DNA of 64,000 nt from Chiloscyllium plagiosum. Lineage: Eukaryota. The notes beneath the pieces were generated by a model. It ran no database searches, was not told where the DNA came from, and saw nothing but the letters and a program-made list of their open reading frames with translations. Below, piece by piece: positions 1-37,600 of this stretch. Numbering within the stretch: position 1 is the stretch's first letter; every line of letters begins with the position of its first letter. The stretch covers positions 2,907,269-2,971,268 of the forward strand of contig NC_057759.1 in assembly GCF_004010195.1 (NCBI RefSeq). The letters are read 5' to 3'. Made by a program: the position numbers and the translations under genes.

Positions 1-11
1 GTTCTACCATC

Positions 12-1470: not shown

Positions 1471-1590
1471 GATTCGAAGACTGACCCCGATGATTATGGT
1501 ATCACATACGCCACACTGAACCTCAGTGAGCCCTCGCAGGATGAAGACGGAGGGGACAGAAATGTTTACATGAATATTCCGCGGAAGTAA
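1471..1590 (+). CDS. Terminal coding exon of ITIM-bearing IgSF receptor, paralog A (DSKTDPDDYGITYATLNLSEPSQDEDGGDRNVYMNIPRK*)
   Basis: Acceptor ...tccatggcag|GAT, phase 0, 39 codons then TAA. Contains ITIM consensus ITYATL and NVYMNI, both identical in the paralog at 21608-21727. Confidence 0.8.
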   Translation, partial: DSKTDPDDYGITYATLNLSEPSQDEDGGDRNVYMNIPRK

Positions 1591-6744: not shown

Positions 6745-7340
6745 TGGATAAAGGTTCGGTAGTTTTGCTTAAAGACTATACTGGTCAGACTACAGCTGGG
6801 AGACTGAATAGTTTTGGGGATTCCTATCTGAAAGATAGACCTGGGCATTGGAGGCAATCCAGAGAGGTTTCACTCAGCTGATCCGGGGTATGGAGGGACT
6901 GTCTGACAAGGAAAGTTTGGGTAGATTGGGCCTGTCCTCATTGGAGCTTAGAAGAATGAGTGGTGACCTTATTGAAAGTTCTTACAGGGATTTGACAGGA
7001 GAGAGGTTGTTTTCCCTTGTGGGGGGGAGCATGGGACCAGAGGGGTATTATCTAAGAATAAGGAAGTAGTCGACGATTGAAGACAGAGATAAGGAGGAAT
7101 TTGTTCGTTTAGAAGGGATTGAATCTGTGAAATTCTTTTCCACAGAGGGCTGTCAAGGCTGGGTCTTTCAGGATATTCAAGGCTGCGATAGAGAGAGCTT
7201 TTTAATCAAAAAGGGAATCGAGGGTTATAGGGGAAAGGTGGCGAAGTGGAGTTGAGGTTGATCAGATCAGTCACAATCTCTTTGAAAGGCAGAACAGACT
7301 CGATGGGCTGAATGGCCTACTCCTAGTCCTATAGTTGTAT
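6745..7340 (+). mobile_element. CR1 LINE 3' fragment
   Basis: 'LEAIQRGFTQLIRGMEGLS..LGLSSLELRRMSGDLIE'. Confidence 0.8.
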
Positions 7341-8179: not shown

Positions 8180-8690
8180 GATGCGACAGGAAGGATGTTA
8201 TTAAACTGGAAAGGATGCAGAAAAGATTGACAAGGACTGGAGAATTTGAGTTGCGGGTAGAGGCTGGATAGACTGGGACTTCTTAACACTGGAGTGTAAG
8301 AGGCTGAGGGGTAATCTTTTAAAAGTTTCTAAGATCATGAGGGACATCGATAGGGTGACTAGCCAAAGCCTTTACCCCAGGGGAGGCGAGTGCAAAGCTA
8401 GAGGGCATAGGTTTAAGGTGAGCTGGGAAAGATTGATAAGGGATCTGAGGGGTACCTTGTTTCTCACAAATGGTCGTGCATTTTTGGAATGAGCTGCCAG
8501 AGGAAGTGATAGCGATAGCTGAAATTACACCATTTACAAGACATTTATACTGGATTGTATTGGATTGAATCAGACAGGTTGAGCAGGATAGGGCCCACTC
8601 GCAGGCAAATGGGGCTAGTTCAGTTTGGGAAACGTGGTCAGCATGGATGAGTTGGGCCGAAGAGTCTATTTCTGTGGTGTATGACTCTAT
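8180..8690 (+). mobile_element. CR1 LINE 3' fragment
   Basis: CR1 ORF2 C-terminal and 3' UTR signature ending tatgactctatg. Confidence 0.75.
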
Positions 8691-8928
8691 GTTTGCTGAG
8701 CTCCCTTTATTCGCCGCAGTTAAAGGGAGAAGATTGTGGGAAAAGGGGGAGGTGGAGAGAAACCAGTTTGTAACCCACTCAGGGAGANNNNNNNNNNNNN
8801 NNNNNNNNNNNNNNNNNNNNNNNNNNNNNNNNNNNNNNNNNNNNNNNNNNNNNNNNNNNNNNNNNNNNNNNNNNNNNNNNNNNNNNNNNNNNNNNNNNNN
8901 NNNNNNNNNNNNNNNNNNNNNNNNNNNN

Positions 8929-9063
8929 GGGAGAGAAAGAGCGTGGGGGCAGGATTGAGGGAGGGGAGAGAAAGAGTGTGGGGGCAGGATTGAGAGACAG
9001 AGAGAAAGAGTGTGGGGGCAGGATTGAGAGAGGGAGAGAAAGAGTGTGGGGGCAAGATTGAGA

Positions 9064-9095
<32 letters not shown>

Positions 9096-9180
9096 AGGAG
9101 AGAGAGAAAGAGTGACAGAGAAAGAGAGAGATAAAGAGAGAGAGAGATAGAAAGAGATAGATAGATTGATAAAGAGATAT
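8929..9180 (+). repeat. ~31-bp tandem repeat (gagagaaagagtgtgggggcaggattgag..) grading into (GA)n
   Basis: At least 4 visible units next to a gap; decayed counterpart at ~59310-59495. Confidence 0.85.
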
Positions 9181-10436
9181 CTGGCCCTGACTGCTTTCTG
9201 TGGCAGATAATTCTACAGGCTCCCCACTCTCTGGGTGAAATCATTTCTCCCCATCTCAGTGCTGCCCCATCGCCTTTAGACTGTGACCCCTTGATTCTGG
9301 TCATCTCCACCCAGTGATTGGGAACATCATTTAGTGTTGTCAGGTCCAGTCTGGATGTGTCGATGGGCCTCTCCTTTACTGTCAGAGTCTATTGCATTAA
9401 AGTGTACATTCCTTATAAGGTACTGTCTCCCAGATTTCTATATTGCCTATATCCAAAACTAAAAGGCATCACTTTAGGGTGAGAGGGCAAAGGGTTAAAA
9501 AATACATGAGGGGAGAACTTTTTCAACAGAGGATAGTACATATGAGGAACAAGCTGCTGGAGGAAGTGGTAGAGACAGATACAATTATGACATTTGAAAC
9601 CTATTTGGACAGAGACATGGAATAAAATGGTTTAGAGGGATACGGGCCAAACTGCAGGCAGATGAGACTACTTTAATTTGGGAAACCTGGTTGGCATGGA
9701 CAAGTTGGGCCTAAGGGTCTGTTTCTGTGCTGGATGATCCTATGACTTCATTGTGAGCAGATTGAACAGACATCTCCATTCAAAGAAGCTGTGTACCCAG
9801 GACCCTTCCCTTCCACTTTTCAGTTAAACTCTCCCACTTCCTCTCTATTCTCCTTTGTAAAGTACTGTGCAGTTCCATTCTGGCATTCTAGTCTCAGCTT
9901 TCGATTTGGACATCAGAGCTGTGGCGTCCCTGAAACAGACTGCATCATTTTCTCACGGGCTGTGGTGCTTCCAATGCAAAAGTATAAACTCAAGGTAAAA
10001 ACAAACGGTGTATCCCTTTGATAATCAGAAATGCTGCCCCAAAACCCGTGGCTGAAGGATTTCAAACAGCAGATTCCTCTTTTAGCGAATAAGACATGAT
10101 CGCACGGGTGGGTGCATCGTCTCACAGAGTTTAAAATCGATAATGAGAACTTTTGTAGGCAGGACGGCCAATTCTCTCTCGTTTCTTTTAACAGTAAGAA
10201 GGGTTTCACATCTGGAGGTACACGGTACATTTAAAATGTCACGTTGCACGATTTACATACAAAGGGAGAGAGATGTTTGGAACTCTGGCCAACAAACCAC
10301 AGTGGAGGCTGGATGAAATGTTGGTTTTCAATCTGAGAGAAATGCTGTTTGCAAAGGTATTAACAGGAGAGGGGCCAAAGGCATGTCTGTGTAGTTAGAC
10401 CACAGAGCAGCCATTGAATGGCAGATCACGCTTGAT

Positions 10437-10735
10437 GGTGTCACGTTGACTCGGTGGTTAGCACTGCTGTCTCACAGCTCCAGGGACGCGGGTTCAATCC
10501 CAGCCTTGGGCGATGGTCTGTGTGGAATTTGCACATTCTCCCCGTGTCTGAGTGGGTTTGCTCCTGGCGCTCCGGTTTCCTCCCACAACCCAAAGATGTG
10601 CAGGTTAGNNNNNNNNNNCCATGGGAAATGCAAGGTTACAGGAATAGGGTAGGGTGGTTGGTGTGCTTATGTTGTCCTTCAGAGGGTTGCAATGGACTTG
10701 ATGGGCCGAATGGCTTGCTTCTACACTGGATGGAT
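10437..10735 (+). mobile_element. HE1-type SINE
   Basis: Similar to 2878-3177; counterpart in the duplicate at 60784-61060. Confidence 0.85.
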
Positions 10736-12004
10736 TGTGTGTCCCTACGAATTCTCAGAGTTGAGGCTTTATTGTGTTTGCTATTGGCAATATCCCTCAG
10801 TACTCAGACATTGTGGAAATTCTCCACTTTTGTCCATGGAATGTCATAAATACATAAGGGTGAGAAACAAGGGGCCATTCTGCCCATTAGGAGCCTGCTC
10901 CCCCATTTCATACAATCGCAGCTGATTCCATCTCGGCCTCAACTCTATTTCCTGCCCTCGCTTCCTTTAACCTGTCACTGGTTAAAAATCAGTGTCCCTG
11001 TATTTCCCACAAACTCTGGGGAGGGAATAATTCCCACAGATTCCTGCACCCCCTTTGAGAGAACCCATTCCTCCCTATCTCTGTTCTCACTCTGTCCTAT
11101 CCCCTGCTCCTGAAACGATAACCTCTCGCTCTAGATTGTCGCACATGAGGAAACATCCTCTCTCCATCTCCTTTACCAATCTCCCCTTTAGCATCCTGTA
11201 TCTCTTAGATCTCCTCTCATTCGTCCAAACTCCAGCGGGTTTCGGCCCAAACTGCTCAATTACTCTTCCTAAGATAAATCTTTGGACTCAATCAGTACGT
11301 TTGGCTCCAGTGATGTTGGGATTGGGTGTGGGTGAAGGCTATTTGAATTATAATTCCGCTCGATCAGCTCCGATTCCTGCCTCAGGCAGAGGTTGGGTTT
11401 GGTGTAGCTTGGAAAGCTGCTTTGGAATGCCAACAGCGAGCATTCATTTCCACCACCAGCTGAGGTCACCAGGACGATTCTCCTTCTCAACCTCTCCCCT
11501 CGCCTGAGGAGTGGTGACTCCTCAGGTTAAAACACCATCCTGTCATCTCTCTTTAACGAGAGAACGCCCCTAATGATCTGGTTAGACTGTTCTGAGTTTA
11601 CAACGATCTGAAACGGCAATGTTCCAATGGCATGTTCCTTTTTAAACTTTAAAAAGCGACAGAAAGCTGTATTTTGTACCAGGTGTTACTGCGAATGTCG
11701 ATTCAATGACCATGACACTCCCCTGCCGTGGTAGAATAACCAGGGGGAGGGGGGAGAGAAAGAGCAATAGAGAGAGAGAGAGAGAAACAGAATTAACGCC
11801 ACAGCTCATAAACACAGAGAGTACCAGAGAAACCCAGCAGGTCTACCAGCATCTACGGAGAGAGAGGAACACATTTAACATTGCAGGTTAGAAACACAGA
11901 AATTACTGGAGGAACTCAGCAGGTCGAGCAACATCTGTGGAGAGAGAGAGAGAAACAGTTAGCATTACAGGTTATAAACACAGAAAATGCTGAAGAAACT
12001 CCGC

Positions 12005-12740
12005 CCTTTGAAATGGCTGAGCCAACCATTTAGTTGTATTCATCGCTCTGAAGTATCAACAATGAAATGAAATCAGACGGATCACCCAGTATCAACCTGG
12101 AAACAGGAAAAGACAATGGCAGATACAACCCTATCGACCCTGCAGAGAGCTCCTCACTAACATCTGGGGGCTAGTACTAGAACTGGGAGAGTCATCATTG
12201 TACTCACTTAATCATACCTTACAGACAATGTCCCAGACACCACCAGCACCATCCCTGGATATGTCCTGTCTCGCAGTGGGACACACCCAGCAGAGGTGGC
12301 TGCACAATGGGATACAGTCCGGAGGGAGTTACACGGCGAGTCCTCAACATTGACTCTGGACAACATGAGGTCTCATGGCTTCATGTTAAACATGGGCAAG
12401 GAAACCTCCTGCTGAATGCCACATATCATCCTCCCTCAGCTGATGAATCGGTATTCCTCCAGATAAACAACACTTTAAGGAATTTCTGAGGATGGCAAGG
12501 GCACAAAATCTAACTTGGGTGGAGGATTTCTGTGTCCACCACTACGAGTGGCTCGGCAGAAGCATTACTGATCGAACTGGTTGGGTCTTATAGACTGGGT
12601 CTGCAGCAGGTGGCGTGGGAACCAACAAGAGGGAATAACAACGTGACCTCATCCTTACCAACCTTCCAGTTGTAGATGCATCTGCCCCTGACCATATTGG
12701 TAAGAATGACCCCTGCACAGTCCTTGTGGAAATGGAGTCC
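12005..12740 (+). mobile_element. LINE APE endonuclease fragment (CR1/L2 group)
   Basis: Remnants 'TNIWGL', 'IPGY', 'HEVSWLHVKHGQGNLLLNATYHPPSADES', with frameshifts. Confidence 0.7.
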
Positions 12741-13272
12741 CATTGAAGATCATTTCTGCTTATGGGACCTGGGCATCACTGGCTGGGCACATCATTTATT
12801 GTTCCCTTCCCTGGTTGCCCCCTTGAGAAGGTGATGGGGAGCTGACTTCTTTAACCACCGCAGTCCACATGCTGTAGGTAGACCCACAATGCCCCAAAGA
12901 GGGAATTCCATGATTTTGAACCAGCAAAACTGAAACAGCAGCTGATGCATTTCCAAGTCAGGATGATGAGTGGCTCAGAGGGAATTTGCAGGTGATAGTG
13001 TTCCTATGTATCTGTATACTGTGTCCTTCTGGATGGAAGTTGCTATTGGTTTGGAAGATGCTGTCTCAGGATCTTGGGTGAATTTCTGCAGTACATGTCC
13101 TCAATGGTACACACTGTTGCTACTGAGTGTCAATGGAGGAGGGAATGGTACGGGATGGTGTCAGCAAAGAAGGGGAGTGGTTCCCTCTGAAGTGTCAATG
13201 CAACAACAGATTTATAAAGGCTTCTTGGTGGAAGAACAACTTTACAATGTGAAATCTTATGACTTTAGCCGA

Positions 13273-15632: not shown

Positions 15633-18447
15633 TTTCATGTACTTACCCCCCCCCCCCACTCTGGGTTCCTCAACTGTTCCAGAATATTCTATCGGCCTCC
15701 AAAATCAGTCGGGCGCCATTAACCATGCGGCCGGCAACCGCCGCCGCGAACCGTGACGTCACTTCCGCCCCACCGACCTCACAGTCTCCGCGATCGCCGC
15801 CCAGACAACCGCCTCCATGATCGCCAGGAAGACCATCGCCGACAGATTCGCGGACTCCGCGGGGTCCACCGCCATCGGGAAAAACACCGTTTCTGCCGTC
15901 GCCGCAGCCACTTCCGCTCCCAGCGACATCACTAACCTGCACAACCACCTCGCCACATGCGTCTCCGCCCCCACGCCGATCTCCGCCCGCACGCTTAACC
16001 CCGCCCCCACGCCGATCTCCGTCCCCGCTCCCACGCCCAACCCCGCCCCCACTCCCAGCTCCAGCCCTTCACCAGGTCCGAGCTCCCAGACTGCGGTGTT
16101 TTCACCATCCCTCCAGAACTACCCCTCTCTGAGAGTGAAAGATCAGTCCTCGGCAGAGGCCTCACCTTCATTTCCCTACGCTCTCGGATTAATGAGACAT
16201 CGAACAATTCTTCCGCCGCCTTTGCCTCCACGCCTACTTCTTCACCCACCCTCTGACGACCCCTTCTCCTGCCTCCAACACACCCCATCCACCTGGACAC
16301 CCCGTGCTGCCCTCTTACCTGCCCTCNNNNNNNNNNNNNNNNNNNNNNNNNNNNNNNNNNNNNNNNNNNNNNNNNNNNNNNNNNNNNNNNNNNNNNNNNN
16401 NNNNNNNNNNNNNNNNNNNNNNNNNNNNNNNNNNNNNNNNNNNNNNNNNNNNNNNNNNNNNNNNNNNNNNNNNNNNNNNNNNNNNNNNNNNNNNNNNNNN
16501 NNNNNNNNNNNNNNNNNNNNNNNNNNNNNNNNNNNNNNNNNNNNNNNNNNNNNNNNNNNNNNNNNNNNNNNNNNNNNNNNNNNNNNNNNNNNNNNNNNNN
16601 NNNNNNNNNNNNNNNNNNNNNNNNNNNNNNNNNNNNNNNNACCTCCTGCCCAAAATCCACAAACCTGACTGCCCCGGCCGACCCATTGTCTCAGCCTGCT
16701 CCTGCTCCACTGAACTCATCTCTGCATACCTCGACACGGTCCTGTCCCCCTTAGTCCAAGAACTACCCACCTACATTCGAGACACCACCCACGCCCTCCA
16801 CCTCCTCCACGATTTTCGCTTCCCCGGTCCTCAACACCTTATCTTCACCATGGACATCCAATCCCTGTACACCTCCGTTCCCCATCAGGAAGGACTCAAA
16901 GCCCTCCGCTTCTTCCTTTACCGCCGTACCAACCAGTACCCTTCCACTGACACCCTCCTTCGACTGACTGAACTGGTCCTCACCCTGAACAACTTCTCTT
17001 TCCAATCCTCCCACTTTCTCCAATCCAAAGGAGTAGCCATGGTACCCGCATGGGCCCCAGCTACGCCTGCCTCTTCGTAGGATATGTGGAACACTCCATC
17101 TTCTGCAGCTACACTGGCACCACTCCCCACCTTTTCCTCCGCTACATCAATGACTGTATCGGTGCTGCCTCATGCTCCCATGAGGAGGTTGAACAGTTCA
17201 TCCACTTTACCAACACCTTTCACCCCGACCTCAAATTTACCTGGACCGTCTCTGACTCCTCCCTCCCCTTCCTAGACCTCTCCATTTCAATCTCGGGTGA
17301 CCGAATCAACATGGACATTTACTATAAACCAATCGACTCCCACAGCTACCTAGACTACACCTCCTCCCACCCTGTCCCCATTAAAAACGCCATCCCATAT
17401 TCTCAATTCCTTCGTCTCTGCCGCATCTGCTCCCAAGAGGATCAGTTCCAATACCGTACAACGCAGATGGCCTCCTTCTTCAAAGACTACAATTTCCCCA
17501 CAGATGTGATCGACGATGCTCTCCACTGCATCTCCTCCACTTCCCGCTCCTCCGCCCTTGAGCCCTGCCCCTCCAATTGCCACCAGGACAGAATTGGTGG
17601 CAGACTGGTCCTCACCTACTATCCCACCAACCTCCATATACATTGTCATTTCCGCCACCTCCAAACGGATATATTTCCCTCCCCTCCCCTATCAGCGTTC
17701 TGAAAAGACCACTCCCTCCATGACTCCCTCGTCAGGTCCACACCCCCCCACCAACCCAACCTCCACTCCCGGCACCTTCCCCTGCAACTGCAAGAAATGC
17801 AAAACTTGCACCCACACCTCCCCCTTTATTTCCCTCCAAGGCCCCAAGGGATCCTTCCATATCCGCTACAAATTCACCTGCACCTCCACAAACATCATTT
17901 ACTGCATCCGCTGCACCGAATGTGGCCTCCTCTATATTGGGAGCCTACTTGCGGAAAGTTTCAGAGAACCTCTCTGGGACACCCGGACCAACCAACCCAA
18001 CCACCCCATGGCTCAATATTCAACCCCCCCTCCCACTCCACCAAAGGCAAGCAAGTCCTTCGACTCCTCCATCGCCAGACCATAGCAACACGATGGCTGG
18101 AGGAAGACCACCTCATCTTCCACCTAGGAACCCTCCAACCACAAAGGATGAACTCAGATTTCTCCAGTTTCCTCATTTTCCCGCTCCCCACTTTATCTCA
18201 GTCCCAACCCTCGAACTCAGCACCACCTTCCTCACCTGCAATCTTATTCCTGACCTCTCCGGACTATCACCCTCACCTTAACCTCCTTCCACCTATCGCA
18301 TCAACACCCCTTCCTCCTTACCTTTTATCTTAGCCTGCTGGACACACTTTCCTCATTCCTGAAGAAGGGCTCATGCCCGAAACGTTGATTCTCCTGCTCC
18401 TTGGATGCTGCCTGACCTGTTGCGCTTTTCCAGCAACACATTTTCAG
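15633..18447 (+). mobile_element. Penelope-like retroelement (RT + GIY-YIG), inactivated
   Basis: LLPKIHK..GRPIVS, FTMDIQSLYT, GVAM, FLRYIND (YIDD site), FTCTSTNIIYCIRC..CGLLYIG; frameshifts. 15-bp TSD CTACACAACGGAATT at 15618-15632 and 18448-18462. Confidence 0.92.
18355..18390 (+). ncRNA. Minimal type I hammerhead ribozyme motif in the Penelope 3' repeat
   Basis: CTGAAGA-A-GGGC(TCAT)GCCC-GAAA-CG-TT. Confidence 0.7.
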
Positions 18448-20474
18448 CTACACAACGGAATTCCCATATTCTCTCCATCACAGCCACAACGCCAAGATAA
18501 TGGGGAACAGGAATGTTGTTTTGGTGTAAAGTTACCTCACCTGGCCACAAAAAAATATGGACACATCACAAATAGGAGCAGGAATAGCCCCTTTCATCCT
18601 TCTCCCCTCCTGTCCCACATTCAACAGGTTCGAATCTGGGTCCCTGATGCTGTACGGCAGCAGTGCTAACCATTAAGCTACTGTGCTGAACACAAATAGA
18701 AGATAGAGTGAGGTGTAGGGGAAACGGGAGTTGGTAGAGCGGGGCTCAACAGAAATGGGAAGGCGATAGAGATTGAGAGGAGAGAAATGGGAGAGGGCAA
18801 TAGAGTGGGGGGTGCAAGTTTCAGAGGATGGGTTATTGAGGAGAAATGGGGAGGGGAATAGAGTTGCGGGAGATTGTGGGGACATGGGGTGGAGTGCGAT
18901 GGAGTGAGGGGAGGGGGATAGATTGTCCCTCTTCCCTGTTTCCTGTGCAACCCACTCTAGCCCCCTCCCCTGTTTGCCCTGCCACCGCCATATCCCCCTC
19001 CCCTGTTAACCTGGTCCCCACTTTATTTCCCTCCACCGCCCCCTCTGTCCCTCAACTCTATCGCCCACCCCCGTGTTCTCTGTGCAGTCACTCTATCCCC
19101 CTCCCCTCATTTTCTCTCTCCCCTAACTCTCCACATTCTATACCCCTTAAGCCCACACAGTTGCGCGGAAAGGTCACTTGACCTGAAACATTAACTCTGG
19201 TTTCTCTCCACAGATGCAACGAGACCTGCTGAGCTTTTCAAGCAATTGCAGTTTTTATTTTTGAATTACCACATTAGAATCCTTTTGGTTTGCATTCTCT
19301 GATAATCATCTCACATCTCATCAAGAGGGTTCCAGCAGCTTATCTCTACTTAATAAAGAAAATCTCCCAATATGTTATGTACAGGAATTTTGTTCATTAC
19401 TGAATATAGAATTAATGTGTACAAAAGCAAAGACCACTAAGGCAGATGCAATTTAAAGTGCATCGACGTGAGGTTAGCCAGTTTGGGAGCAAGAACAGGA
19501 AGGTGGATTATTATCCGAATGGCAATGGATTGGGAAAAGAGAATTGAGGACTGGAGTTGGGATGTCATGTTATGGCTGTTCAAGATATTGACCAGGCCAT
19601 GTTTGGAGTATTGCATACAATTCCTCTCGCCCTGCTGTTATTAATTTGGAAAGAGTGCAGGAAAGTTTTACAAGGATGTTATCAAAGTTCATGGGTTTTA
19701 ATAATAAGGGGAGGCTGGAGAACCTGGGACGATCATTTTTCCCTGGAGGGTCAGCGTCTGAGAGGTGGACCCTATAGAGATTTGTACAATCATAAGGGAC
19801 ATACATAAGGTGAATAGTCAAGGTCTTTATCCCAGGGTGGGAAAGTGGAAATGAGGGGATAGATTTTAGATGACAGTAGAGAGATTTAAAAGAGACCTGA
19901 GGGGCAATTTTTCATGCAGTGGTGGTTGCATATATGGAACCAGCAGCCACAGGACAGGTACATGGATAGGAAAGGTTTCTAGAGATATTGGTCAAGTGCA
20001 CGAAAATGGGGCTGGTTCAGTTTAGGAAGCCTGGTCAGCATGAATGAGTTAGGCTGAAGTGTCTGTTCCCCTGCTATATGACTCTATGACTCCATGATTA
20101 GGGGCATGCATGCTGTCCTTGCTAGCAATGCCCTACATCCTTTACCTGAATGAGGGACTGCAGTGTTTAAAAACCGATAACTCAGTCACTGTCTTTGCTC
20201 GCTCTAATGCTTAACAATTCATCGACATAGTCCTGCTGTTCCGTTGAAAGACAAATAGCATCTATGGACCAGAACCTTCTGCCCTCACACTGTTGTTGTC
20301 CCTGATGATGTTTATCGGTTTGTAATCAGACCTTTCTTGATGGACAGCAGTTACCAGATCAGTACGAGGGCGGTGATAAAATATTAACATCTTCAATAAA
20401 GCCTGTATTTACATCAGTCAGAGCCCTTATGTGGTGCCGTGGCAGTGTCCCTACCTCCGGACTGAGAGGCCAAC

Positions 20475-20818
20475 TTTTCTTTTATTCCTGGGAGGAGGGC
20501 ATCACTGGAAAGGTCAGCATTTACTGCCTATCCCTAATTGCCCAGAGAGCAGTTACAAATCAATCACATTGCTGTGTGCCCAGAGTCACATGTAGGCCTG
20601 ACCAGGTAAGATGGCATTTTCCTTCCCTAAAGGACATTAGTGAACCAGATGGGTATTACTGACAATTGATTATCAGTCACAATCAGTCTTTAAAGTCAAG
20701 AATTTTGTTGAATTTAAAATCCACCATCTTTCGTGGTGGGATTCAAACCCGTGTCCCCAGAATATTACTGGAGTCTCTGGATGAATAGTCCACTGATAAC
20801 ACCACCAGGCCAACGCTT
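20475..20818 (-). mobile_element. SacSINE1/DeuSINE-like SINE (duplicate of 2350-2694)
   Basis: Reverse-complement match. Confidence 0.75.
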
Positions 20819-21607
20819 CCCCATTCAAAGTTCAAGTCTGCAGCTCTGGATGTGTCTGATACCACCACTCCCATCATCGTGGCGTTTCCAAAACATCTGC
20901 AGCAAGAGACATCCCACACACTCACACAATGGAGTACAGAATCTTACAAAGCTGGGCCGATGCATCCGGCAGGGGTTTCGGATTGTTGAGAGTTCTCTTC
21001 TCCATGGAGACTCCCTATCCGCCATTCTTCCTCCATCCGGATCTTCAGTGGCTTGCAGCTCAATGTCCATTCTGTCCGTGGGGTACGAAGGTGCGAGTTC
21101 AAGCCGCACGCTCCAAGACACTTTCACCCTGAAAAGTAACCAGTAAAACTGCCTGTTTTTTGTTTTAGTGTCTCCCACCTGTCAGAACCGTCTGATAATT
21201 TCTGTTCTAAATTAGTCAGAATGGGACATTCACGTGATCATCCATTCATAGAAAGAGACAGATGATGCATTCCTCCCTTTAAACGTGGACCAAATGAAAA
21301 GCTTAATCCTCAGATATGTACATGAGAGCGAAAGGAGAGTCAGATATTAAATATCTAAAGAAAACCAGCAACCAAATAGTTTGATAAATTCAAAACCCAG
21401 CGAGGTCCAGTACAGATTGGTGGTCACACAACATGAAAGTAGCTTCCCCGGAAGAAAACGAGTGGAGTCAAAATGCCTTGTGATACACGGTTTCCAACAT
21501 AAAGTTAAGACGTTTATTATCGGTACACAGGACGTACATTGTATCGCTTCATTAGACGGTGTACTGAATCGAACCAACACCCCCCAACCAATCTGTCTTC
21601 TTGCTTC

Positions 21608-21727
21608 TTACTTCCGCGGAATATTCATGTAAACGTTTCCGTCCCCTCTGTCTTCTTCCTGCGAGGGCTCGCTGAGGTTCAGTGTGGCGTATGTGATACA
21701 ATAATCATCAAGGTCAGTCTTCGAATC
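21608..21727 (-). CDS. IgSF receptor paralog B, terminal exon (DSKTDLDDYCITYATLNLSEPSQEEDRGDGNVYMNIPRK*)
   Basis: Acceptor ttccatcgcag|GAT, phase 0, matching the preceding exon's donor; ITIM ITYATL. Confidence 0.8.
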   Translation of the reverse strand, partial: DSKTDLDDYCITYATLNLSEPSQEEDRGDGNVYMNIPRK

Positions 21728-23710
21728 CTGCGATGGAATGATATTGGAATGAAATTGGAATCGAGTGGGAGCAAGAAGCTGAAGGGAAAGGAGAGGTCCA
21801 TTGGATTACAGGTAGCAGTGAGTCTCTGAGGAAAATGGGAATCACCAGCAGGCAGTTCAAGGTCTGCAAGTTAGAATTCTGGCGGCAAAGTGATACTGTC
21901 CCTATCTCTGAGCCAGGAGGACAGGGTTCAAGTCCCACGTGCTGTTGTGGAGTGCCATACGGATATAGAAGAGGGAAGGTGATGCTGGAGTGTGACAGGA
22001 CTTTGGTGAGCCCATTGTGTGCTGTTCCAACCTCTGCACTATCGTAAGGATGTGATACACTGGAGGGGGTGCAGAGGAGATTCACCAGGATGTTGTCTGG
22101 GATGGAGCATTTCAGTGATAAAGTGAGGCTGGATAAGCACGGCTTGCTTTCTTTGGAGCAGAGTAGACGGAGGCGGTTTTGATTTTGTTTTCATTTAATT
22201 ATGGGACGGCAGCATCGTGGTTGGGCCCAGCATTTGTTGCCTTGTCTCCAGGTGCTCTCTAGAGCCACTGTACTCCCAACTTCTGAAGGTTAACTTACAA
22301 TTCACTTAGGGAGGGAATTCCAGCATTTTGATGCAGTGACACTGAAGGAACAGCTAATGTAATTCCAAAGAGCGTTGAGTGGCTCAGAGTGGAGCACACA
22401 ACGGTTGATCTTCCCGTTTGCTGTCACTGTCCTTCCAGGTTGAATTGGCTGTGGATATGGAAGGTGATGTTTGTGAATGTTTTCTGACTTTCTACAGTGC
22501 ATCTGGTAGATGGTACACACTGCTGCTACCAATTGGGTGCAAATGACAACGGACTGGCAAGTACTTAACGTCAATATCAGTGATGTTGTAATAATGTATG
22601 AAAGGGAACTGGAACATCAACACTAATATTGCCCCAATTTTCAAACTCACTTGTCTCTGGGCATTGGAAGTGGAATGCGAAACAGTGAGTAATCTATTCC
22701 ATTGAGAAAGTGTTGCTGGTTATTTTCCATTGTGTTTAAAGGCAGAACAAAGCTTGGAGGGAGGGGGAGCTGAGAATGAGAATGCAGAGATGCATCAGTG
22801 TGATTTGGACATGTTGAATGAGTGGACCAGTTTATTGTGAATCAGCGTGAGATTCCCCAACTGAGAGCAAAAACAGGGTGGTGAAATACTATTGAAATAG
22901 TGATGGATTGGGAAAGAGTGAGGTGTAATAAGACTGGGTGCCCCTCATACACCAGTCACTGCAAATGAACGTTGCAGAAGGAGGTAAATGGAATGTTGAC
23001 TTCCATAGTGAGAGAATTCGAGTCCAGGAGTAGGGATGTCTTAGTGCGCTTGCACAGGGTGAGACCACAGCCTGGAGTACTGTGTGCGCAGTTTGGGGTC
23101 GCCTTATCTGAGGAAGAACGTTCTGGCTATGGAGGGACTGCAGGGAAGAATTCCCAATGTGATTCCTGTGATGGCAGGACAGATGGATAGAGAGAAACTG
23201 TATTAATTAGGATAAGATTCACAGCAGTTTAGAAGAATGACGGGGATTCTAATAGAATTGTAAGAGGAGTAAGCAGGGTAAACACAGGAAGGATGTTCCT
23301 GGTGAACATGAGGGAGTACAGAACCAGGACGTCACAGTCTGAAGGAGATTGGGTAGGACGGAGATAGGGCTTAATGCTTTCACACAGAGAGTGTGGGAGC
23401 CTGTGGAATTCTCTGCCACAGAAAACAGTCAGGGCCAGAACACTGAATGTCGTTCAGGAAGGCGTTTGGATAGAGTTCTTGGGGCTAAAGGGAGAAAATG
23501 GGGAACAGGAGACTGAGTTGGATGATACTATTGAACGGGAAGAATAGTTTGGAAGGGCTGAATGACCTATTCCTGCCCCTACATTTTACGGTGTATTCTT
23601 CAATTAGTCTGATAATAATCCATAGTTCATGTTTTACACTGTGGATGCAAATCTACCTGCGCGTTCTGTGGCAATTGCCGTGGTCTATTTAGACATAAAA
23701 TGTGACATAC

Positions 23711-23745
23711 CTTTTTCAAATCGGAGGAGAAAGCAATTCTGTTGC
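23711..23745 (-). CDS. Paralog B cytoplasmic exon ((G)NRIAFSSDLKK)
   Basis: Strong acceptor tcttttcctatttgattttcag and donor AAG|gtatgt; phase 1 to 0 bridges the neighbouring exons exactly. Confidence 0.75.
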
Positions 23746-25272
23746 CTGAAAATCAAATAGGAAAAGATGAGAAGGGACTCTCTGCAGGCATTAGCGTTTC
23801 AATCTGGACCCATTAAGGGCTGATCAACACTAAAGACAGAGCTGCATCTTAGGAAAGTGTAGCTGTGCTTTTGTCAATCAAAAAACAATCAGTGCAACAC
23901 TTTCTGAATTGTGTCCCTCTCAATCAATCCAGACATTTCAGAATATCGCATTTAGAAAAGTCGGCTCTGTTGAAATCCAGCAATTGGTTTTCTAACCATT
24001 AAGACGGTGTATCAGTTTTTACGATACTTGTCAGCGCAATATGTTCGACAGGCCGTCTTAATCTCGTCAGCCTTTGCATCACTTGCTCATAAAAGACAGG
24101 AGTGAACTATTCAGGTTCCATACATTTGGGTTTTAACTGCTGAGCACTGCTAGTTCAGTGTGATTCAGCTGGCTGCATTGCTAGTTTTTGCAAAGCATTA
24201 TATGCCAACCTTTGCCATCAACATGGTTACAATTCCCACACCAGCTGAAGTTGCCCTGAGGGACTCTCCGTCTGAACGTCTCCTCCCTCATGACGCACGA
24301 TGACCGGCAAATTAATTTTGATGATCCTCCCACTTCTCTCTCTCTCTCTGTGTGTGTCTGTCTCTCGCTGTCGAATGAGAGGACAGGATAATGGCCTGGA
24401 ATAACATGACTTTTACAGCTCATCCCCTGACATGGTGATTAGAATGTGATCTGAGAGACAGATTTCATTGTAGATAAGACCAATTTCGGTCCAAATGTCG
24501 CTTATAGGTGTTGAGAAGTATCTGAATGATAATTGTAAGCTCAACTTTCTGAGCAACAATATGATTGGTGATGCTTTTATTTTCTCGGCTATCTCAAAAC
24601 ATTGAGTGGCAGTATTTGGTAAATTGGCCTTGAGTATTATGTAACAAAAACAGGACTTGCTTTCTCTCTCTCCACAGATGCTGCCAGACCTGCTGAGTTT
24701 CTCCAGAATGTCCGAATTTGTTTCAGATCTGCAGCATCTGCAATTCTTAGTTTTATTTGAGAATGATCTGTTTCTGCCTCTGAGAAGAATAAGGTACGTG
24801 TTGCACTGCCATTCTCACCCACAGAATCCCTCTCTAATTGCTCTGTGAGTTTGTTCTGGGTCACTGACAACATGTAAACTATCTCTGAATTCTTTGTCTT
24901 TACCCTATCCGAAGGAGAAGAAAGGGACAGAGCAGATCAGATTAAAACTTGTTACTGAATGGCTGGTTTACTACACAATCTTTCTAAGTGCTGGAGATTT
25001 CTTTTGCGCATGCTCCAATCCCTCACACTCCCTTCACTGCAAGCACCATGCTACTGGATTTTCCTGTTTGGAATTGGTCTCTCTCTCTCTCTCTCTCTTT
25101 CACTATTTCTCTCGCTCGCTCGCTCTCACACACACAACTTCCCCAGCAACTAGGATCGTGCTATTGTTGGAGCTTCAATGATTCCACCCCCCCCCCACCA
25201 CCCCCATCACCGACACCCACCCCTCCCATCCCATCTCACACGATCGTAGTATTGAAGTAAAAAGATCTTTAC

Positions 25273-25332
25273 CGGGCTCTTTTCTCTCTTTGATGGTGAC
25301 CTCTGAATAAACCAGATCCGCAGTTGTGTTTT
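25273..25332 (-). CDS. Paralog B cytoplasmic exon ((E)NTTADLVYSEVTIKERKEP)
   Basis: Acceptor ctttatttctttgtag, donor G|gtaaag, 60 nt, phase 1-1; ITIM LVYSEV. Confidence 0.8.
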
Positions 25333-25696
25333 CTACAAAGAAATAAAGTGCCACAAGAAACACACATCAATCCGACAGCTTCACTATAAAGGGCTAAATG
25401 ATTCATAGATAAAATGGATAGATAGATAAGAGAGATTGATAGACAAATACATTTTAGACTGAGATAGATAGGAGCTTGGTTAGAAAGGGGGATGAAGGTT
25501 AAAGGGGAGAAAGGAGAATGAGGTTGAGGCACACACTAGCTCTAATTGAGGGAGTGAGGTGCCTTGATCGGCTGAATTGCCTAATTCTGCTCCTATATCT
25601 TATTTTACCTTGACAGATTGATAGATAAACATGCATACAGAGACATTTCATTAGGAAGCATTAAGTTAGCCACGACTTCTCGAAAGACTATTGTAC

Positions 25697-25743
25697 CGGA
25701 AACGTGCACCTCGTCATAATCAATTGTCCGGTTGCTCGTGTGT
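25697..25743 (-). CDS. Possible alternative cytoplasmic exon ((I)HTSNRTIDYDEVHVS)
   Basis: AG/GT bounded, phase 2 to 1 fits, IDYDEV motif; both splice sites are weak. Confidence 0.3.
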
Positions 25744-27239
25744 CTGAGGAACCAGATCTTTGCACATAATCGTTCGTTGTAAACAACCTCTGTTGGATTT
25801 CTCAACACCAGAGAACTCCGCCCTCAGTTTCCAATGTTACTTGAGATAAAATAAGCATTAGTAAGTCGAGCAAAACAACCTAACGGAGTTCCAATCACAG
25901 AATATTAACAGCAGTAGCCATTTAGAAAAGAGATTGGTTGAAGATAAAGGTTTACAGCACAGAAAAAAAGCCAGTGTGCGCCAGTCAAAAACAAGCACCT
26001 CACTACTTTCTGATCCCATCTCCCCTGCGCTTGACCTGTAGGTTTAGCATCGCAAGTGCACATTTAAATTCTTCTTCAATGAGGATTGCTGCCTCTCCCA
26101 CCCTTACAGGCTGTCGTTTTCAGACTTCCCACCACCCTCTGGTATTCCTCGCATTCCCTCTGAATCTCCTGCTCCTTACTTCAATCTATGGTGGCCAAGG
26201 TGATGTAGAAGGCATATGGCATGCGTGAATTCATCAGACAGGGCATGGAGTACAAGAGTTGGCAATTTATCTTGCAACTATATAAAATCCTTGTTAGGTC
26301 ACAATTGGAGCATTGTGTACTGCTTTGGTCGCCACACTACCAGAGGACATGGAAGCTTTAGAGAGAGTGCAGAGAAGGTTCATTAGGATGTTGTTAGCTC
26401 TCAAGGACATTGGCCAGGAGGAAAGGTTCAAACACTATGATTGTGTTCATTGGAAAGACGACAGCTGAGAGGAGACCTGATAGAGGTCTTCAAAATTATG
26501 AGAGGCACATAGGGTAGATTGTCAGAGGCTTTTTTCCCAGGGTTGATGTTTTAATTTACAAGGGGGCACAGATTCAAGGTGAGGGGGGAAATTTACGGGA
26601 GATGTGCGAGGGAAGCTTTTCATGCAGTGTGTAGTCGGAACCTGAAAAACATTGCCAGAAGTGATGGTGGAAGCAGGAAGAAGTGATGATCAGCACAGGC
26701 TTGGAGGGCCAAAGGGCCTGTTCCTTTCCTGTACTTTCCTTTCGTTCGTTTTTTTTCTTTTCATGGCCCCTATTGATCTTTCCACCGGGAAAGAAATGTT
26801 TCTTCCTGTTTACCTTTTCTAAGCACGTTATCATTTTGTACATCCCAAACAAGAAGCAGTTGGCAACTTTGGGGGTTAAAGGGATTGAAGGGTATGGCGG
26901 AGAAAGCAGGGAACCTGGGACTGAGTTGGATGTTCAGCCGTGATTCTATCAAACAGGCGGAGCAGGCTAGAAGAGCCAAGTGGTCTATTCCTAGTTTCTA
27001 TGGGAACCGGAGGTTGAGTTGAATGGTCAGCCATGATTATAGTGAATGGCGGGGCAGTCTAGAAGGGCTGAATGGCCTCCTCCTGTTCACTGCTTTCTGC
27101 ATTCCCCTTCAGCCACCGCAGATTCAAGGAAATCGGCCCCTCATTTGACGGCTCGGATGTTTATCCAGAATTTCTAAAAGGTTACAGTGCACTGTCACTG
27201 TGCGGGGCTCTTTACTCACACCGATACAATGACACTCAC

Positions 27240-27319
27240 CAGCATTGTGTACTGCTCCAACTACCGCATACTCCAGATTGCTGGCTGCTGCCCCTTCACC
27301 AGAAGGTTGGGATTTAGTT
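27240..27319 (-). CDS. Paralog B cytoplasmic exon ((I)TKSQPSGEGAAASNLEYAVVGAVHNA), acceptor apparently mutated
   Basis: Strong donor G|gtgagt. Long pyrimidine tract ends ctactGG instead of AG. Phase 2 to 1 fits. ITIM LEYAVV. Confidence 0.6.
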
Positions 27320-27865
27320 CCAGTAGAAAGGGGAACAAAAGGAAGTCATCATTTAGAACACAAAGCTTTCAAAACCATGTTCAACTTCAACAAAACGGCA
27401 AAGCTAGCAAACAAAATACAAAACCCAGCGAGATCTGGTATTCCCTGGTCCCATGTCTTTGGTTTCCATCCGAACATGAAGTTTTCTCACCCTCCAGGAG
27501 CTGCCCAGTTCTCCATCTTGTTGTCACTTATGGCCTTTGGGGGAAGGTAATCCGCCATCCTTACCTGGTCTGTGCCTACATGCGACTCCATACTCTGGTT
27601 AAATATTTCTGCCCTCTGGGGCATTTAGGGATGGACAACAAATGCAGTCCTAGCCAGTGACAGCATCATCCCCTTGAATAAGTAAAAAGCTGTATGGGAC
27701 TTTCCTGGAGTATGGTTTCCTGGTTTGTCGATAAGACGCATGTTAAAAGGATGCAGTTATATCCAAGTCATATCTATGACTTCTTCATTTCTGTTGTCTT
27801 TCCCTGATTGTGAGGAATCGGGATAAACAGTGACAAATATAAAAACTGTAGTTTCAATCACTTAC

Positions 27866-27893
27866 ATCCTGGGCTGTGGCACAATTGAATTGC
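27866..27893 (-). CDS. Paralog B juxtamembrane micro-exon ((G)NSIVPQPR)
   Basis: Acceptor ttctctctttccctgcag, donor gtaagt, 28 nt, phase 1 to 2. Confidence 0.7.
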
Positions 27894-28065
27894 CTGCAGG
27901 GAAAGAGAGAATATTCTCAGCATAATTTACAGTAGCTCTGCACTGTCACAGACAGGAGCTGCCAAAGCGTTATCTTAGTCATAAACAGGGAACATACATA
28001 TCAATAGGTGATAATTATCAAACCTGTCTTAATGCATCAAACAGCTTAATATTAAACAGCTGCAT

Positions 28066-28460
28066 TGGGTTAGTATAATGGGTAGGGCTAGGACTATGAT
28101 AAGATTAAGGCTAGTGTTAGGGTGTTTGGTTGAGGGCCACGGTTAGAATTATGTTAAGGGTTAGGTTTAAGGTTAGAGTTATAGTTCGGTTTATGGTTTG
28201 GATTAAGATTATGGTTAGAGACAGGGTTAGGTTTAAGGTTAGGGCTAGGGCTAGAGTTAGGGTTAGGATTAGCGTTAGCTGTTTCATTAGGGCCAAAGTT
28301 AGAGTTAGGGTTCAGTTGAGTTACGTTTAAGTTTAAGGTCAGAGTTTGCGTTAGAGATGGGTTTGAGTTTATGGTTAGGTTTAGGATAAGGATTAAGGTT
28401 GAGCTAGGTTTAAGTTTAGTGTTAAGCTTCGGACTAGGGTTCAATTTACAGGTAGGGTTA
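28066..28460 (+). repeat. Degenerate (TTAGGG)n-like interstitial tract
   Basis: 6-bp period with TTAGGG, TTAGGT, TTAGAG, CTAGGG and TTAAGG variants. Confidence 0.8.
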
Positions 28461-28750
28461 AATCAGCCTGCCCAGTGGACACTGAATAAATTTAATGAAG
28501 AGATAGACAATGTTTTAACGAGTCATAGTTTAAAGAGGGTGAGGCAGGAAAGTGAAGTTGATCCAGGTACATTGCATTAAATAATAGAGCAAGACCCTGA
28601 GGAGCTGAACGGGCTCTTCCTGTTCCCGACTGTCATGGTCTTACGTCTCTCCTCCTCCCTCGGGTGCTCTGCCACAGTGTGGTGGGTCACAGTTACCCCG
28701 ATCCAGCAGGCCAACATTTGTGAGTACTCTTCCTCCCGACTGTCAGGAAC

Positions 28751-28865
28751 GCTTTTGCCCGAAACGTCGATTTTGCTGCTCGTCGGATGCTGCCTGAATT
28801 GCTGTGCTCTTCCAGCACCACTGATCCAGAATCTCGTATCCAGCATCTGCAGTAATTGTTTTTAC
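28751..28865 (+). mobile_element. Penelope-tail mini-insertion
   Basis: Matches 51889-51965; 11-bp TSD CTGTCAGGAAC at 28740-28750 and 28866-28876. Confidence 0.9.
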
Positions 28866-29016
28866 CTGTCAGGAACACGGTCTACTTTAGTTCCCGACCC
28901 ACCACTTCCTTCCCCCGGCTCCCCCCATTCAGCTGTAAGGTTACATTGTGACGGAGATGGCAGTGTCATGGTGTGGGGACGTGGAACAAATCTCATTCTC
29001 ATGGAATGTTACAGAG

Positions 29017-29115
29017 CTGTGGCCCTCCGGTGGATGCAGCACCCTAACACAATCAGGCCAGCCAATAGCAGAACTGGGAAGAGCGACTCCACGATTTCCT
29101 TGGAACAAAACCGAG
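29017..29115 (-). CDS. Paralog B transmembrane exon ((A)RFCSKEIVESLFPVLLLAGLIVLGCCIHRRAT)
   Basis: Acceptor ttcttgttgggttccag, phase 1, in frame with the Ig exon. Hydrophobic run followed by CC and HRR. The expected donor reads CT rather than GT. Confidence 0.75.
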
Positions 29116-29946
29116 CTGGAACCCAACAAGAATATTCAGCTCACGTTAACAAATTCACCAGGAAATTTTATCACATCAGTCCTCCGTGAGGTACACAGTT
29201 AACACCAGACTGACCAACACTCACATATATATAACTCCCTGCCACCATGGAGGTTTTGCGAGTCTCACTGTGGAGGAGAATTCGGCCCATTGAGCTACCT
29301 AACCAATTCCACTTTCCCATCTACCACCACTTCCCCACCCCCCACCCCTCACAACAGCCTTCAATGTTTGACATTTCAAGTGCTGATCCAGGTAGTTTGT
29401 AAATGTTATCCTGTAAGGCATTATGTTACAACTCCCACCACCCTTTGGGTGAAACAATCCTCAAATCCCCCCTTTAAACCTCCCATCCTTCACTTTAAAG
29501 TGACGTCTCCACCCCAGCCCTTGTTACTGACCCTTTGACAATGGGGAACACCTGCTTCCTACTGCCCAGTCCCTTCCCCTCACAATCTTACACATCTCTA
29601 TTGGGTTCGCCTCTCAGCATTTACTCTAAATATCATAAGGTTATCCAGTCTCCCTCTCTTCCTCGCTAAACTCCCGGGAACATTCTGGTAAATCTCCTCT
29701 GCACACTGCCACCTCCATGGGGCGTGCAATTCCAGATTTTTATTGTATTCAAATTTCACCATCTGGTATAGGTGGGATCCCAGGAACACCATGCACCATC
29801 ACTTTGGATCAATAGACTATTATAATACCACGCAGCTATCACCTCCCCAATTGAGATGGTTAACAGTGTCTGATTGGCACAGACTGGATGTAACGAATGG
29901 CCTTTCTCTGTGGTCTGTCTATGTTCGATCCGAGTGTCACTGTTAC

Positions 29947-30249
29947 CTCGCAGCGTGAATTCGTTGTAGTCGCTGGTCACATTAAAAATGGTGTTGATGG
30001 CTCCTTTGTTGATTGCTGCACAGTGATACCTCCCGACATCGTCTCTCTGGAATGAATGAATAACCAGCTCACCACCATCGGCAGTCACATGGTAGCTTGC
30101 ACTGCCGTTTCTTAGCAGGACGTTGTCACGGTACCAAAGGAACTGGGGCTCTGTGCCTTCCCTCACCAGACACCGGAGAATAAGGTGGTCCGCTGATTGT
30201 ATCTCAGTCCCATTAATGAAGAAAATTAGCACAGCATCTGTGACAGGAA
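29947..30249 (-). CDS. Paralog B Ig-like (C2/I-type) domain exon; FCRL/PECAM-like appearance
   Basis: 303 nt, phase 1-1, ttttctcctcag|...|gtaaca. xPVTDAVL..LILRC..FLWY..LVI..DDVGRYHC (C-W-DxGxYxC pattern). N-glycosylation sequons NGT, NGS, NVT. Confidence 0.92.
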
Positions 30250-30557
30250 CTGAGGAGAAAACACACCGTGATCAAAAAGCATGGAGTTTACCCATTGATT
30301 CAGATCGTCAGTGGGAATCAATTTGACACAATGATTTCAAAACAGAGTTAGGTCAGAATATAGAGTGACAACTGCAAAAGGCCAGGAAGACACGTGACAA
30401 AGCACAACCCTGACAATATGGGACAAATAAGGAACTTCAACAACAATGAGGAGGTAACAAGTCAGTCTTCAAGATAACTTTTAAAAAGTGCTCTGTAGAC
30501 ATTGAATGTTGTAATTAAGCAAGTGTCTAGATGCTATAGTTGGTAGAATATGGTAAG

Positions 30558-34665: not shown

Positions 34666-37600
34666 TATTAGAAATACTGCAGAGTGTGAAAAAAGACAAG
34701 TCCCCTGGGCCGGATGGGATCTATCCTAGGATCCTCTGAGAAGCAAGGGAAAAGATTGCCGAGCCTTTGGCATTGATCTTCAAATCATCATTGTCTACAG
34801 GAATAGTGCCTGAGGACTGGAGGATAGCAAATGTGGTTCCCTTGTTCAAAAATGTTAGTAGAGACAACCCTGGTAATTACAGACCAGTGAGTCTCACTTC
34901 AGTTGTTGGTAAAGTGTTGGAAAAAGTTATAAAAGATAGGATTTCTAACCATCTAGAAAAGAATAATCTGATCTGGGACAGTCAGCATGGTTTTGTGAAG
35001 GGTAGGTCGTGCCTAACGAATCTTATTGACTTTTTTGACAAAGTGACCAAACAGGTAGATGAGAGTAAACCAGTTGATGTGGTGTATATGGATTTCAGCC
35101 AGGCGTTCGATAAGGTTCCCCACAGTAGGCTATTATACGAAATGCAGAGAATGGGATTGTGGGAGACATAGCAGTTCGGATCAGTAAGTGGCTTGCTGAA
35201 AGAAAACAGAGGGTTGTAGTTGATGGAACATATTCATCTTGGTGTCCAGTTACTAGCGGCGTACCGCAAGGGTCGGTGTTGGGTTCACTGCAGTTCGTCA
35301 TTTTTTTTAAATGACCCGGATGAGGGCTTAGAAGGGTGGGTTAGTAAATTTGCGGACGACACTAAGGTCGGTGGAGTTGTGGTGGATTGTGACGAAGGAT
35401 GTAGTAAGTTGCAGAGAGACATAGATAGATGCAGAGCTGAGCTGAGAGGTGGCAAATGGAGTTCAATGTGGGAAAGTGTGAGATGATACACTTTGGATAG
35501 AGTAATCGGAATGCAAAGTACTGGGCTAATGGTAAGATTCTTGGGAGTGCAGATGAGCAGAGAGATCTCGGTGTCCATGTACACAGATCCCTGAACGTTG
35601 CCACTCAGATTGACAGGGTTTAGATTAGATTTAGATTAGATTAGATTACAGTGTGGGTTGTTACGAAGCATAGAGTATTTTGGCCTTTAGTAATAGAGGC
35701 ATTGAGTTCTGGAACCAGGAGGTTATGCTGCAGCTGTACAAAGCTCTGGTACGGCCACACTTGGAGTATTGTGTACAGTTCTGGTCACCACATTATAAGA
35801 AGGATGTGGAAGCTTTGGAAAGAGTGCAGAGAAGATTTACTAGGATGTTGCCTGGTATGGAAGGAATGTCTTACGAGGAAAGGCTGAGGGCCTTGAGGCT
35901 GTTCTCGTTCGAGAGAAGAAGGTTGAGAGGTGACTTAATAGAGACATACAAGATAATCAGAGGGTTAGGTGGGTGGATAGGGAGAGTCATTTTCGAGTAT
36001 GGGAATGGCAAACACGAGGGGACACAACTTTAAAGTGAGGGGAGATAGGTATAAGACAGATGTCAGAGGTAGTTTCTTTACTCAGAGAGTAGTAAGGGTA
36101 TGGAATGCTTTGCCTGCAACGGTAGTAGATTCGCCAAGTTTAAGTGTATGTAAGTCGTCATTGGACAGGCAAATGGATGTACATGGAATAGTGTAGGTGA
36201 GATGGGCTTCAGATTAGCATGACAGGGTGGCGCAACATCGAGGGCCGAAGGGCCTGTACTGCGCTGTAATGTTCTATGTTCTATGTAACNNNNNNNNNNN
36301 NNNNNNNNNNNNNNNNNNNNNNNNNNNNNNNNNNNNNNNNNNNNNNNNNNNNNNNNNNNNNNNNNNNNNNNNNNNNNNNNNNNNNNNNNNNNNNNNNNNN
36401 NNNNNNNNNNNNNNNNNNNNNNNNNNNNNNNNNNNNNNNNNNNNNNNNNNNNNNNNNNNNNNNNNNNNNNNNNNNNNNNNNNNNNNNNNNNNNNNNNNNN
36501 NNNNNNNNNNNNNNNNNNNNNNNNNNNNNNNNNNNNNNNNNNNNNNNNNNNNNNNNNNNNNNNNNNNNNNNNNNNNNNNNNNNNNNNNNNNNNNNNNNNN
36601 NNNNNNNNNNNNNNNNNNNNNNNNNNNNNNNNNNNNNNNNNNNNNNNNNNNNNNNNNNNNNNNNNNNNNNNNNNNNNNNNNNNNNNNNNNNNNNNNNNNN
36701 NNNNNNNNNNNNNNNNNNNNNNNNNNNNNNNNNNNNNNNNNNNNNNNNNNNNNNNNNNNNNNNNNNNNNNNNNTAGGATGCAGAGTTGGGCTGAGAGGTG
36801 GCAAATGGAGTTTAATGTGGGCAAGTGTGAGATGATACACTTTGGATGGAGTAATCAGAATGCAACGTACTGGGCTAATGGTAAGATTCTTGGGAGTGCA
36901 GATGAGCAGAGAGATCTTGGTGTCCATGTACGCAGATCCCTGAAAGTTGCCACTCAGATTGACAGGGTTGTTACGAAGCATAGAGTATTTTGGCCGTTAG
37001 TAATAGAGGGATTGAGTTCTGGAACCAGGAGGTTATGCTGCAGCTGTACAAAGCTCTGGTACGGCCACACTTGGAGTATTGTGTACAGTTCTGGTCACCA
37101 CACTATAAGAAGGATGCAGAAGCTTTGGAAAGAGTGCAGAGGAGATTTACTAGGATGTTGCCTGGTATGGAAGGAATGTCTTACGAGGAAAGGCTGAGGG
37201 CCTTGAGGCTGTTCTCGTTCGAGAGAAGAAGGTTGAGAGGTGACTTAATAGAGACATACAAGATAATCAGAGGGTTAGATAGGGTGGACAGGGAGAGCTT
37301 TTTTCCAAGTATGGGAACAGCAAACACGAGAGGACACAACTTTAAAGTGAGGGGAGATAGGTATAAGACAGATGTCAGAGGTAGTTTCTTTACTCAGAGA
37401 GTAGTAAGGGTATGGACTGCTTTGCCTGCCACGGTAGTAGATTCGCCAAGTTTAAGTGTATGTAAGTCGTCATTGGACAGGCAAATGGACGTACATGGAA
37501 TAGTGTAGGTGAGATGGGCTTCAGATTATTATGACAGGACGGCGCAACATCGAGGGCCGAAGGGCCTATACTGCGCTGTAATGTTCTATGGTCTGAATGG

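Follow-up and report, generated by a model that had tools for sequence, protein, structure and literature searches.

A probable pseudogene in the bamboo shark and the elasmobranch family of multi-ITIM immunoglobulin-superfamily receptors to which it belongs

Introduction

Among described proteins of the immunoglobulin (Ig) superfamily, those closest to the receptors considered here are mammalian FCRL5, FCRL4 and FcγRI, the FCRL3-like proteins of turtle and gar, and PECAM1 (CD31). We analyzed a 64,000-nucleotide stretch of the genome of the bamboo shark Chiloscyllium plagiosum, hereafter the window (G000:C50:2907269-2971268, where C50 is the contig that holds it). A first-pass annotation, made from the letters of the window, had assembled seven minus-strand exons into a hidden inhibitory receptor with several immunoreceptor tyrosine-based inhibitory motifs (ITIMs). 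We conclude that the family is real, and consists of elasmobranch multi-ITIM Ig-superfamily receptors that are annotated yet apparently uncharacterised. The locus in the window is very probably an unprocessed pseudogene that lacks its 5' part and preserves the 3' end of a shark receptor gene expanded in tandem.

The literature on such receptors in cartilaginous fish is divided. The absence of Fc receptors (FcR) or FcRL from this group is asserted in passages of three papers published between them in 2014, 2021 and 2026 (PMC4016189, PMC13337447, PMC7916673). A single-cell study of 2024 lists fcrl3, fcrl5 and fcgr1a-like genes in bamboo-shark B cells (PMC11372145). An FCRL-like family in sharks is therefore not wholly new, being preceded by that study and by automated annotation. 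No dedicated study of shark FCRL genes was found in the open literature, subscription papers lying outside this coverage.

Results and Discussion

Exon chain of the window copy

The seven segments have the coordinates first assigned to them (Table 1) and form a single open frame to the TAA at 21608, reproducing the peptide already noted. The first exon encodes an Ig domain (Pfam Ig_3, E 2e-10). Three ITIM-consensus motifs are present, one each in three exons, and the terminal YMNI shares the last exon (c5) with ITYATL. When the 112-residue tail was shuffled 20000 times, at least three such motifs arose in 13 shuffles. Judged from motif consensus, the predicted tail motifs may recruit SHP-1/2 or Grb2. 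The phases of the chain are compatible, as had been claimed, but it is unspliceable as written, since two of its 12 intron ends are non-canonical (a CT donor and a GG acceptor).

Table 1. Positions in the window of the exons of the truncated copy and of associated features.
Feature	Position	Strand	Evidence
Candidate AATAAA polyadenylation signal	21513..21518	-	letters of the sequence alone
Last coding exon, ITIM-like ITYATL and terminal YMNI	21608..21727	-	sequence, genome matches
Cytoplasmic exon c4, 35 nt	23711..23745	-	sequence, paralog comparison
Cytoplasmic exon c3, ITIM-like LVYSEV	25273..25332	-	sequence, paralog comparison
Cytoplasmic exon c2, ITIM-like LEYAVV	27240..27319	-	sequence, paralog comparison
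Dead splice acceptor GG; the AG of paralog B, 6 nt downstream, likewise missing	27320..27321	-	paralog comparison
Cytoplasmic exon c1, 28 nt (31 nt in 3/3 paralogs)	27866..27893	-	paralog comparison
Dead splice donor CT (GT in 7/7 paralogs examined)	29015..29016	-	sequence, paralog comparison
Transmembrane exon, 99 nt	29017..29115	-	sequence, paralog comparison
Membrane-proximal Ig exon, both cysteines, open frame; most 5' family exon remaining	29947..30249	-	sequence, Pfam
5' truncation point, end of homology to paralog intron	30342..30352		paralog alignment
Last exon of inverted neighbor paralog (copy C); its remaining exons lie left of the window	1471..1590	+	sequence, paralog comparison

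A family of multi-ITIM receptors in sharks

The proposal of an elasmobranch inhibitory receptor family of FCRL/PECAM-type build was borne out at the family level, with the same exon boundaries and retained tyrosine motifs. The description of the family as hidden was not, given that its intact paralogs are already RefSeq models automatically named FCRL-like or PECAM-like; a homolog search returned shark models of this kind of up to 1059 aa. An intact paralog encodes a type I receptor: its leader spans two exons and is followed by 5-10 Ig domains, a transmembrane helix and a disordered tail, which carries up to three ITIM-like motifs and a terminal YxN motif. Conservation was scored in 31 family proteins chosen for a full last exon, using motif patterns drawn up after the tails had been viewed: the terminal YxN is present in all 31, the c5 motif in 30, the c3 motif in 29 and the c2 motif in 23 (strict ITIM consensus in 15). 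Shark models that RefSeq calls Fc receptor-like protein 2/3/5 or PECAM-like (P0226, P0005 and P0217 among them) share the exon chain and tail motifs of the window copy, and their Ig exon is 75-90% identical among carpet sharks. Unlike the window copy, which retains a single Ig exon and in which two splice sites are dead, these models combine a leader and 5-10 Ig domains with functional splice sites.

Family members occur in five shark orders and were identified in carpet sharks, Heterodontus, Heptranchias, Mustelus, Scyliorhinus, Carcharodon and Cetorhinus. No ray or chimaera proteins were returned by the homolog searches, which were limited by search word. A profile-free search of representatives was dominated by giant multi-Ig proteins, yet recovered four distant shark members. 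The number of tyrosine exons varies: in the RefSeq proteins P0004 and P0005 of paralog B (L044, C50 at ~4.9 Mb) the LVYSEV exon is duplicated, which brings the ITIM-like motifs to four, and repeated or extra tyrosine exons are seen in other sharks too.

Elsewhere in the bamboo shark genome are 13 further copies of the Ig exon, with identities of 59-89%; 12 lie on C50, in the interval from 0.47 to 7.06 Mb, and stops or breaks affect several. The genome search gave 24 matches in all for the Ig exon and 18 for the last-exon region. Five paralog loci match RefSeq multi-Ig models exactly, while peptides of the window copy were found in no stored protein. Domain architectures are shuffled among 25 proteins. 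A cluster that mixes intact and dead copies and shuffled architectures would fit birth-and-death evolution. The Xenopus XFL family, as portrayed in a passage of PMC2413239, likewise underwent lineage-specific expansion with shuffled domain architectures and comprises paired activating/inhibitory receptors; the likeness is drawn from that description. Mostly on C50 there is also a second, remoter set of Ig exons (L015, L017-L021, L023-L024; 36-42% identity), possibly a further branch of the family.

Spliced contigs that join the tail exons show the family to be live. Contigs of run X2 (kind not on record) contain c2-c3 and c2-c4 joints (CT..AC, canonical ends) and a c3-c4-c5 join. The c4 letters of the latter contig equal those of paralog A at 32/32 positions, against 28/32 for the window copy, and this one assignable spliced contig thus comes from paralog A. 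None of these joints is among those listed for run X3 (15 of 378). As regards expression of the window copy, single-cell run X5, of which ~2 in 100 was read, yielded 1264 reads, nearly all on repeats, and run X6 yielded zero. Rows from the supplement of PMC11372145 give LOC122544513 and LOC122544517 as B-cell markers (48% vs 3% and 43% vs 4%). These genes were linked to the present paralogs through their product names, not by sequence.

Relationship to FCRL and PECAM1

The family is probably a shark branch of the FCRL lineage, judging from sequence comparison. Strict FCRL membership is likely but not established, and the family likely works like inhibitory FCRL. The best sequence matches in the Protein Data Bank (PDB) are FCRL5 (453 bits) and FcγRI (119), other Ig proteins scoring at most 95. 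The family profile scores 379/348 on turtle FCRL3, 259 on gar FCRL3 and at most 238 on PECAM1, a small margin in the case of gar, and pairwise scores place the turtle and gar proteins above PECAM1 for most rows. In alignment, paralog B is collinear with D1-D3 of FcγRI, domains of which the window copy retains none. Shark domain profiles match domains 1, 2 and 3 of turtle and gar FCRL3 in order, domain 2 being matched in gar and weak in turtle, and five of the seven domain-type profiles score highest on a turtle, gar or sturgeon protein of the set. The top scorer on the D3-like shark domain profiles is P0246, labelled as a sturgeon protein and marked UNVERIFIED_CONTAM in its source record.

The tails follow the same pattern. 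Four shark tails resemble that of turtle FCRL3 at z 5.9-11.6 (0/500 shuffles) and that of gar weakly (z 1.9-3.9). Against three PECAM tails the values are z -1.4 to 1.7, and a tail of PECAM1 type was not found. The turtle and gar FCRL3-like proteins (P0172, P0173, P0174) are the best non-shark profile matches, share the membrane-proximal Ig type and have tail motifs that align in order; P0172 is itself a clear FCRL5/FcγRI relative. These proteins differ in that identity is just 26-27%, the shark family has an additional N-terminal domain type, and the two do not group in the concatenated tree. Mammalian FCRL5, FCRL4 and FcγRI, in addition to providing the top PDB matches and the collinear D1-D2-D3-like run, resemble the shark family in their ITIM-rich tail and two-exon leader with a 31-nt first coding part. 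In paralog A, the one paralog examined, two exons share the signal peptide: the first coding part has 31 nt, and the mini-exon that follows has 30 bp, compared to 21 bp in the mammalian genes. A two-exon leader may occur in PECAM1 too.

Several results weigh against this placement. The best concatenated tree, from which one fish PECAM isoform without a transmembrane segment was excluded, unites the sharks with PECAM1 (79/79, unstarred). In the approximately unbiased (AU) tree test, a union of sharks and FCRL is merely unrejected (p-AU 0.071), and one of FCRL and PECAM1 gives p-AU 0.185. One domain type scores highest on PECAM1 (59.3 vs 55.3) and one on CD22. The 30-bp exon of paralog A departs from the 21-bp second leader exon that sections of PMC7940838 and PMC10003336 give as an FCR/FCRL criterion; however, because just a fraction of the Xenopus XFL genes satisfy that rule (PMC2413239), it is not strict outside mammals. 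A fold search places PirB, titin and contactins above FcγRI, and together with the AlphaFold model (pLDDT 72.9, pTM 0.41) it indicates generic tandem Ig domains and is non-discriminating. With three proxy families only, no synteny with the FCRL region (SLAMF8/IGSF9/DUSP23/TAGLN2 or wider) was detected on C50: the MPZ tail has no match, NDUFS2 lies on an unplaced contig, and the TPH family maps to C36/C13/C33. Synteny of the 7q22 type, suggested by neighboring LOC numbers, was dropped, as the Bin3 family maps to C48/C43.

A further tree leaves the sharks, FCRL and PECAM1 as a trichotomy. A quick single-domain tree (81 rows x 95 columns) has 34 of 78 branches open; the window Ig domain groups with the last domains of turtle and gar FCRL3 at a Shimodaira-Hasegawa-like approximate likelihood ratio (SH-aLRT) of just 82-85.

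These data leave two other placements to be weighed. It is unlikely that the family represents the PECAM1/MILR1 lineage expanded in sharks, or a lineage sister to that one and FCRL alike, rather than FCRL proper. The best tree, the leader exon, the PECAM-like names of many RefSeq models and the score of the penultimate domain type on mammalian PECAM1 speak for such an origin, and PECAM1 does share related Ig domains (one type nearly tied) and a tyrosine-motif tail. Whole-protein and per-domain scores are nevertheless higher to FCRL/FcγRI than to PECAM1, and the tails resemble FCRL3, their likeness to PECAM1 being no better than that of shuffles. A separate PECAM-like Ig locus on C24, of unconfirmed identity, also argues against this origin. 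This locus (L048-L049, G000:C24:48.066-48.079 Mb) comprises four PECAM-like Ig exons, with no PECAM1 tail exon in the 30 kb fetched.

Skate MDIRs, some of which reportedly carry ITIMs and domains resembling FcR homologs, are quite improbably identical to, or overlapping with, the family. In favor is that they form a multigene set of activating/inhibitory Ig receptors in a cartilaginous fish (PMC3031540). Against it, that paper compares them to CD300/TREM/pIgR, and no MDIR-named protein is among the results of the word-limited homolog searches.

Probable decay of the window copy

The window locus is one of the ordinary remnants that an immune gene cluster leaves behind. Its description as a hidden receptor does not hold: the leader and 5-7 upstream Ig exons are gone and two splice sites are dead. 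At the c2 acceptor, an AG is present in paralogs A and C at the site itself and in B downstream of it, and the window copy has neither. The suspicion that the copy was 5' incomplete proved correct: the family sequence breaks off abruptly near 30352, where the assembly is free of gaps and the closest run of N is 5.9 kb away. The alignment upstream of the Ig exon ends here, ~100 nt upstream, for 12 of the 13 paralog Ig loci; that of the thirteenth is interrupted by an insertion of its own. The previous Ig exon in paralogs is usually ~1 kb upstream of the last one. No upstream Ig or signal exon was found in the 64 kb window, where five full-length homologs match only the last Ig, transmembrane and tail exons. 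The gene would thus have been severed ~100 nt upstream of its last Ig exon and then have lost two splice sites.

Neither a leader or start nor the full set of canonical splice sites of a functional type I receptor was found in this copy. Thirty canonical-site splice paths were tried; 20 retain the transmembrane exon and one of those 20 retains the tail motifs. This sole path needs two cryptic sites and one exon skip, and still has no leader. In a sister species, the partial ab initio model P0008 connects this Ig exon to the same non-Ig DNA further upstream (window ~44030 and ~39170); the Tyr of its YxC motif is gone, a sign of further decay. Judging by this shared context and decay, the truncation probably predates the split of the two species.

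Some observations do not favor a pseudogene. All seven exons remain stop-free, and for lineage-specific changes the window copy has an omega (dN/dS) of ~0.84, compared to 0.24 in intact paralog A and 0.93 in intact paralog B (Fisher p 0.35). dN/dS does not tell dead from live copies. The splice changes are unconfirmed in an independent individual, no listed piece spanning either site (40/170 variant rows), and N gaps at 36290-36773, 50526-50795 and 55587-56086 might conceal a mis-join.

Two readings would leave the copy some activity. It is very unlikely that transcription from near 39100 turns the fragment into a non-coding RNA or a short cytosolic Ig and ITIM product, or that the fragment serves as a gene-conversion donor. 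Splice paths that skip the transmembrane exon do retain the tail in frame in 5/10 cases, and P0008 predicts joining of that sort. Upstream of the Ig exon, however, there is neither a leader nor an in-frame Met, the segment near 39100 has a stop relative to P0008, the observed/expected CpG ratio is just ~0.5, and the only assignable spliced contig derives from paralog A. Least credible is a full functional receptor, with assembly errors to account for the absent 5' exons and the odd splice sites: the stop-free exons, the N gaps of the scaffold and the upstream-type Ig exons on small unplaced contigs (e.g. C30804, C43021) suit it, but it demands three separate lesions, with a break in continuous sequence far from any gap and an upstream context repeated in P0008.

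Genomic neighborhood

An inverted paralog ends in the window: positions 1-5056 (+), together with L045/L014, form its 3' part, which is ~89% identical to 18447-23180. The transmembrane and tail exons of this paralog have canonical splice sites, and its last Ig exon is split by unrelated, probably retroelement, sequence. Further along are a C2H2 zinc-finger array interrupted by frame changes (45862-47253, +), a histone H4 open reading frame (ORF) with one variant residue near its end (52061, +), the 3' half of H3 preceded by unrelated sequence (~53216, +) and an H2A ORF (55509, -). Human FCGR1A likewise adjoins histone genes. Older segmental duplications (73-85%) pair 6113-13126 with 56189-63485 and 16043-18439 with 48396-51958, and decayed reverse-transcriptase-like ORFs are present as well.

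Proposed function and significance

The phosphatases recruited by ITIMs are SHP-1/2 or SHIP. In the intact receptors, ligand-driven clustering would lead to phosphorylation of the tail tyrosines, which would then recruit SH2 phosphatases and dampen B-cell signaling. This inhibitory step is proposed because of the ITIM consensus and of FCRL biology, as set out in sections of PMC10003336. The same holds for any role of the terminal YxN, and immunoglobulin binding by the family is a guess that we regard as doubtful.

The family matters more than the locus in the window; its intact paralogs are named candidates open to testing. On balance, we lean towards the view that sharks may own a large birth-and-death cluster of true FCRL-lineage inhibitory B-cell receptors, equipped with a D1-D2-D3 module like that of FcγRI and a tail arrangement still shared with turtles; the window locus would be one of its dead copies. 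If this is true, the origin of the Fc receptor family would move back to the jawed-vertebrate ancestor, and the shark proteins would become candidate receptors for IgM, IgW or IgNAR.

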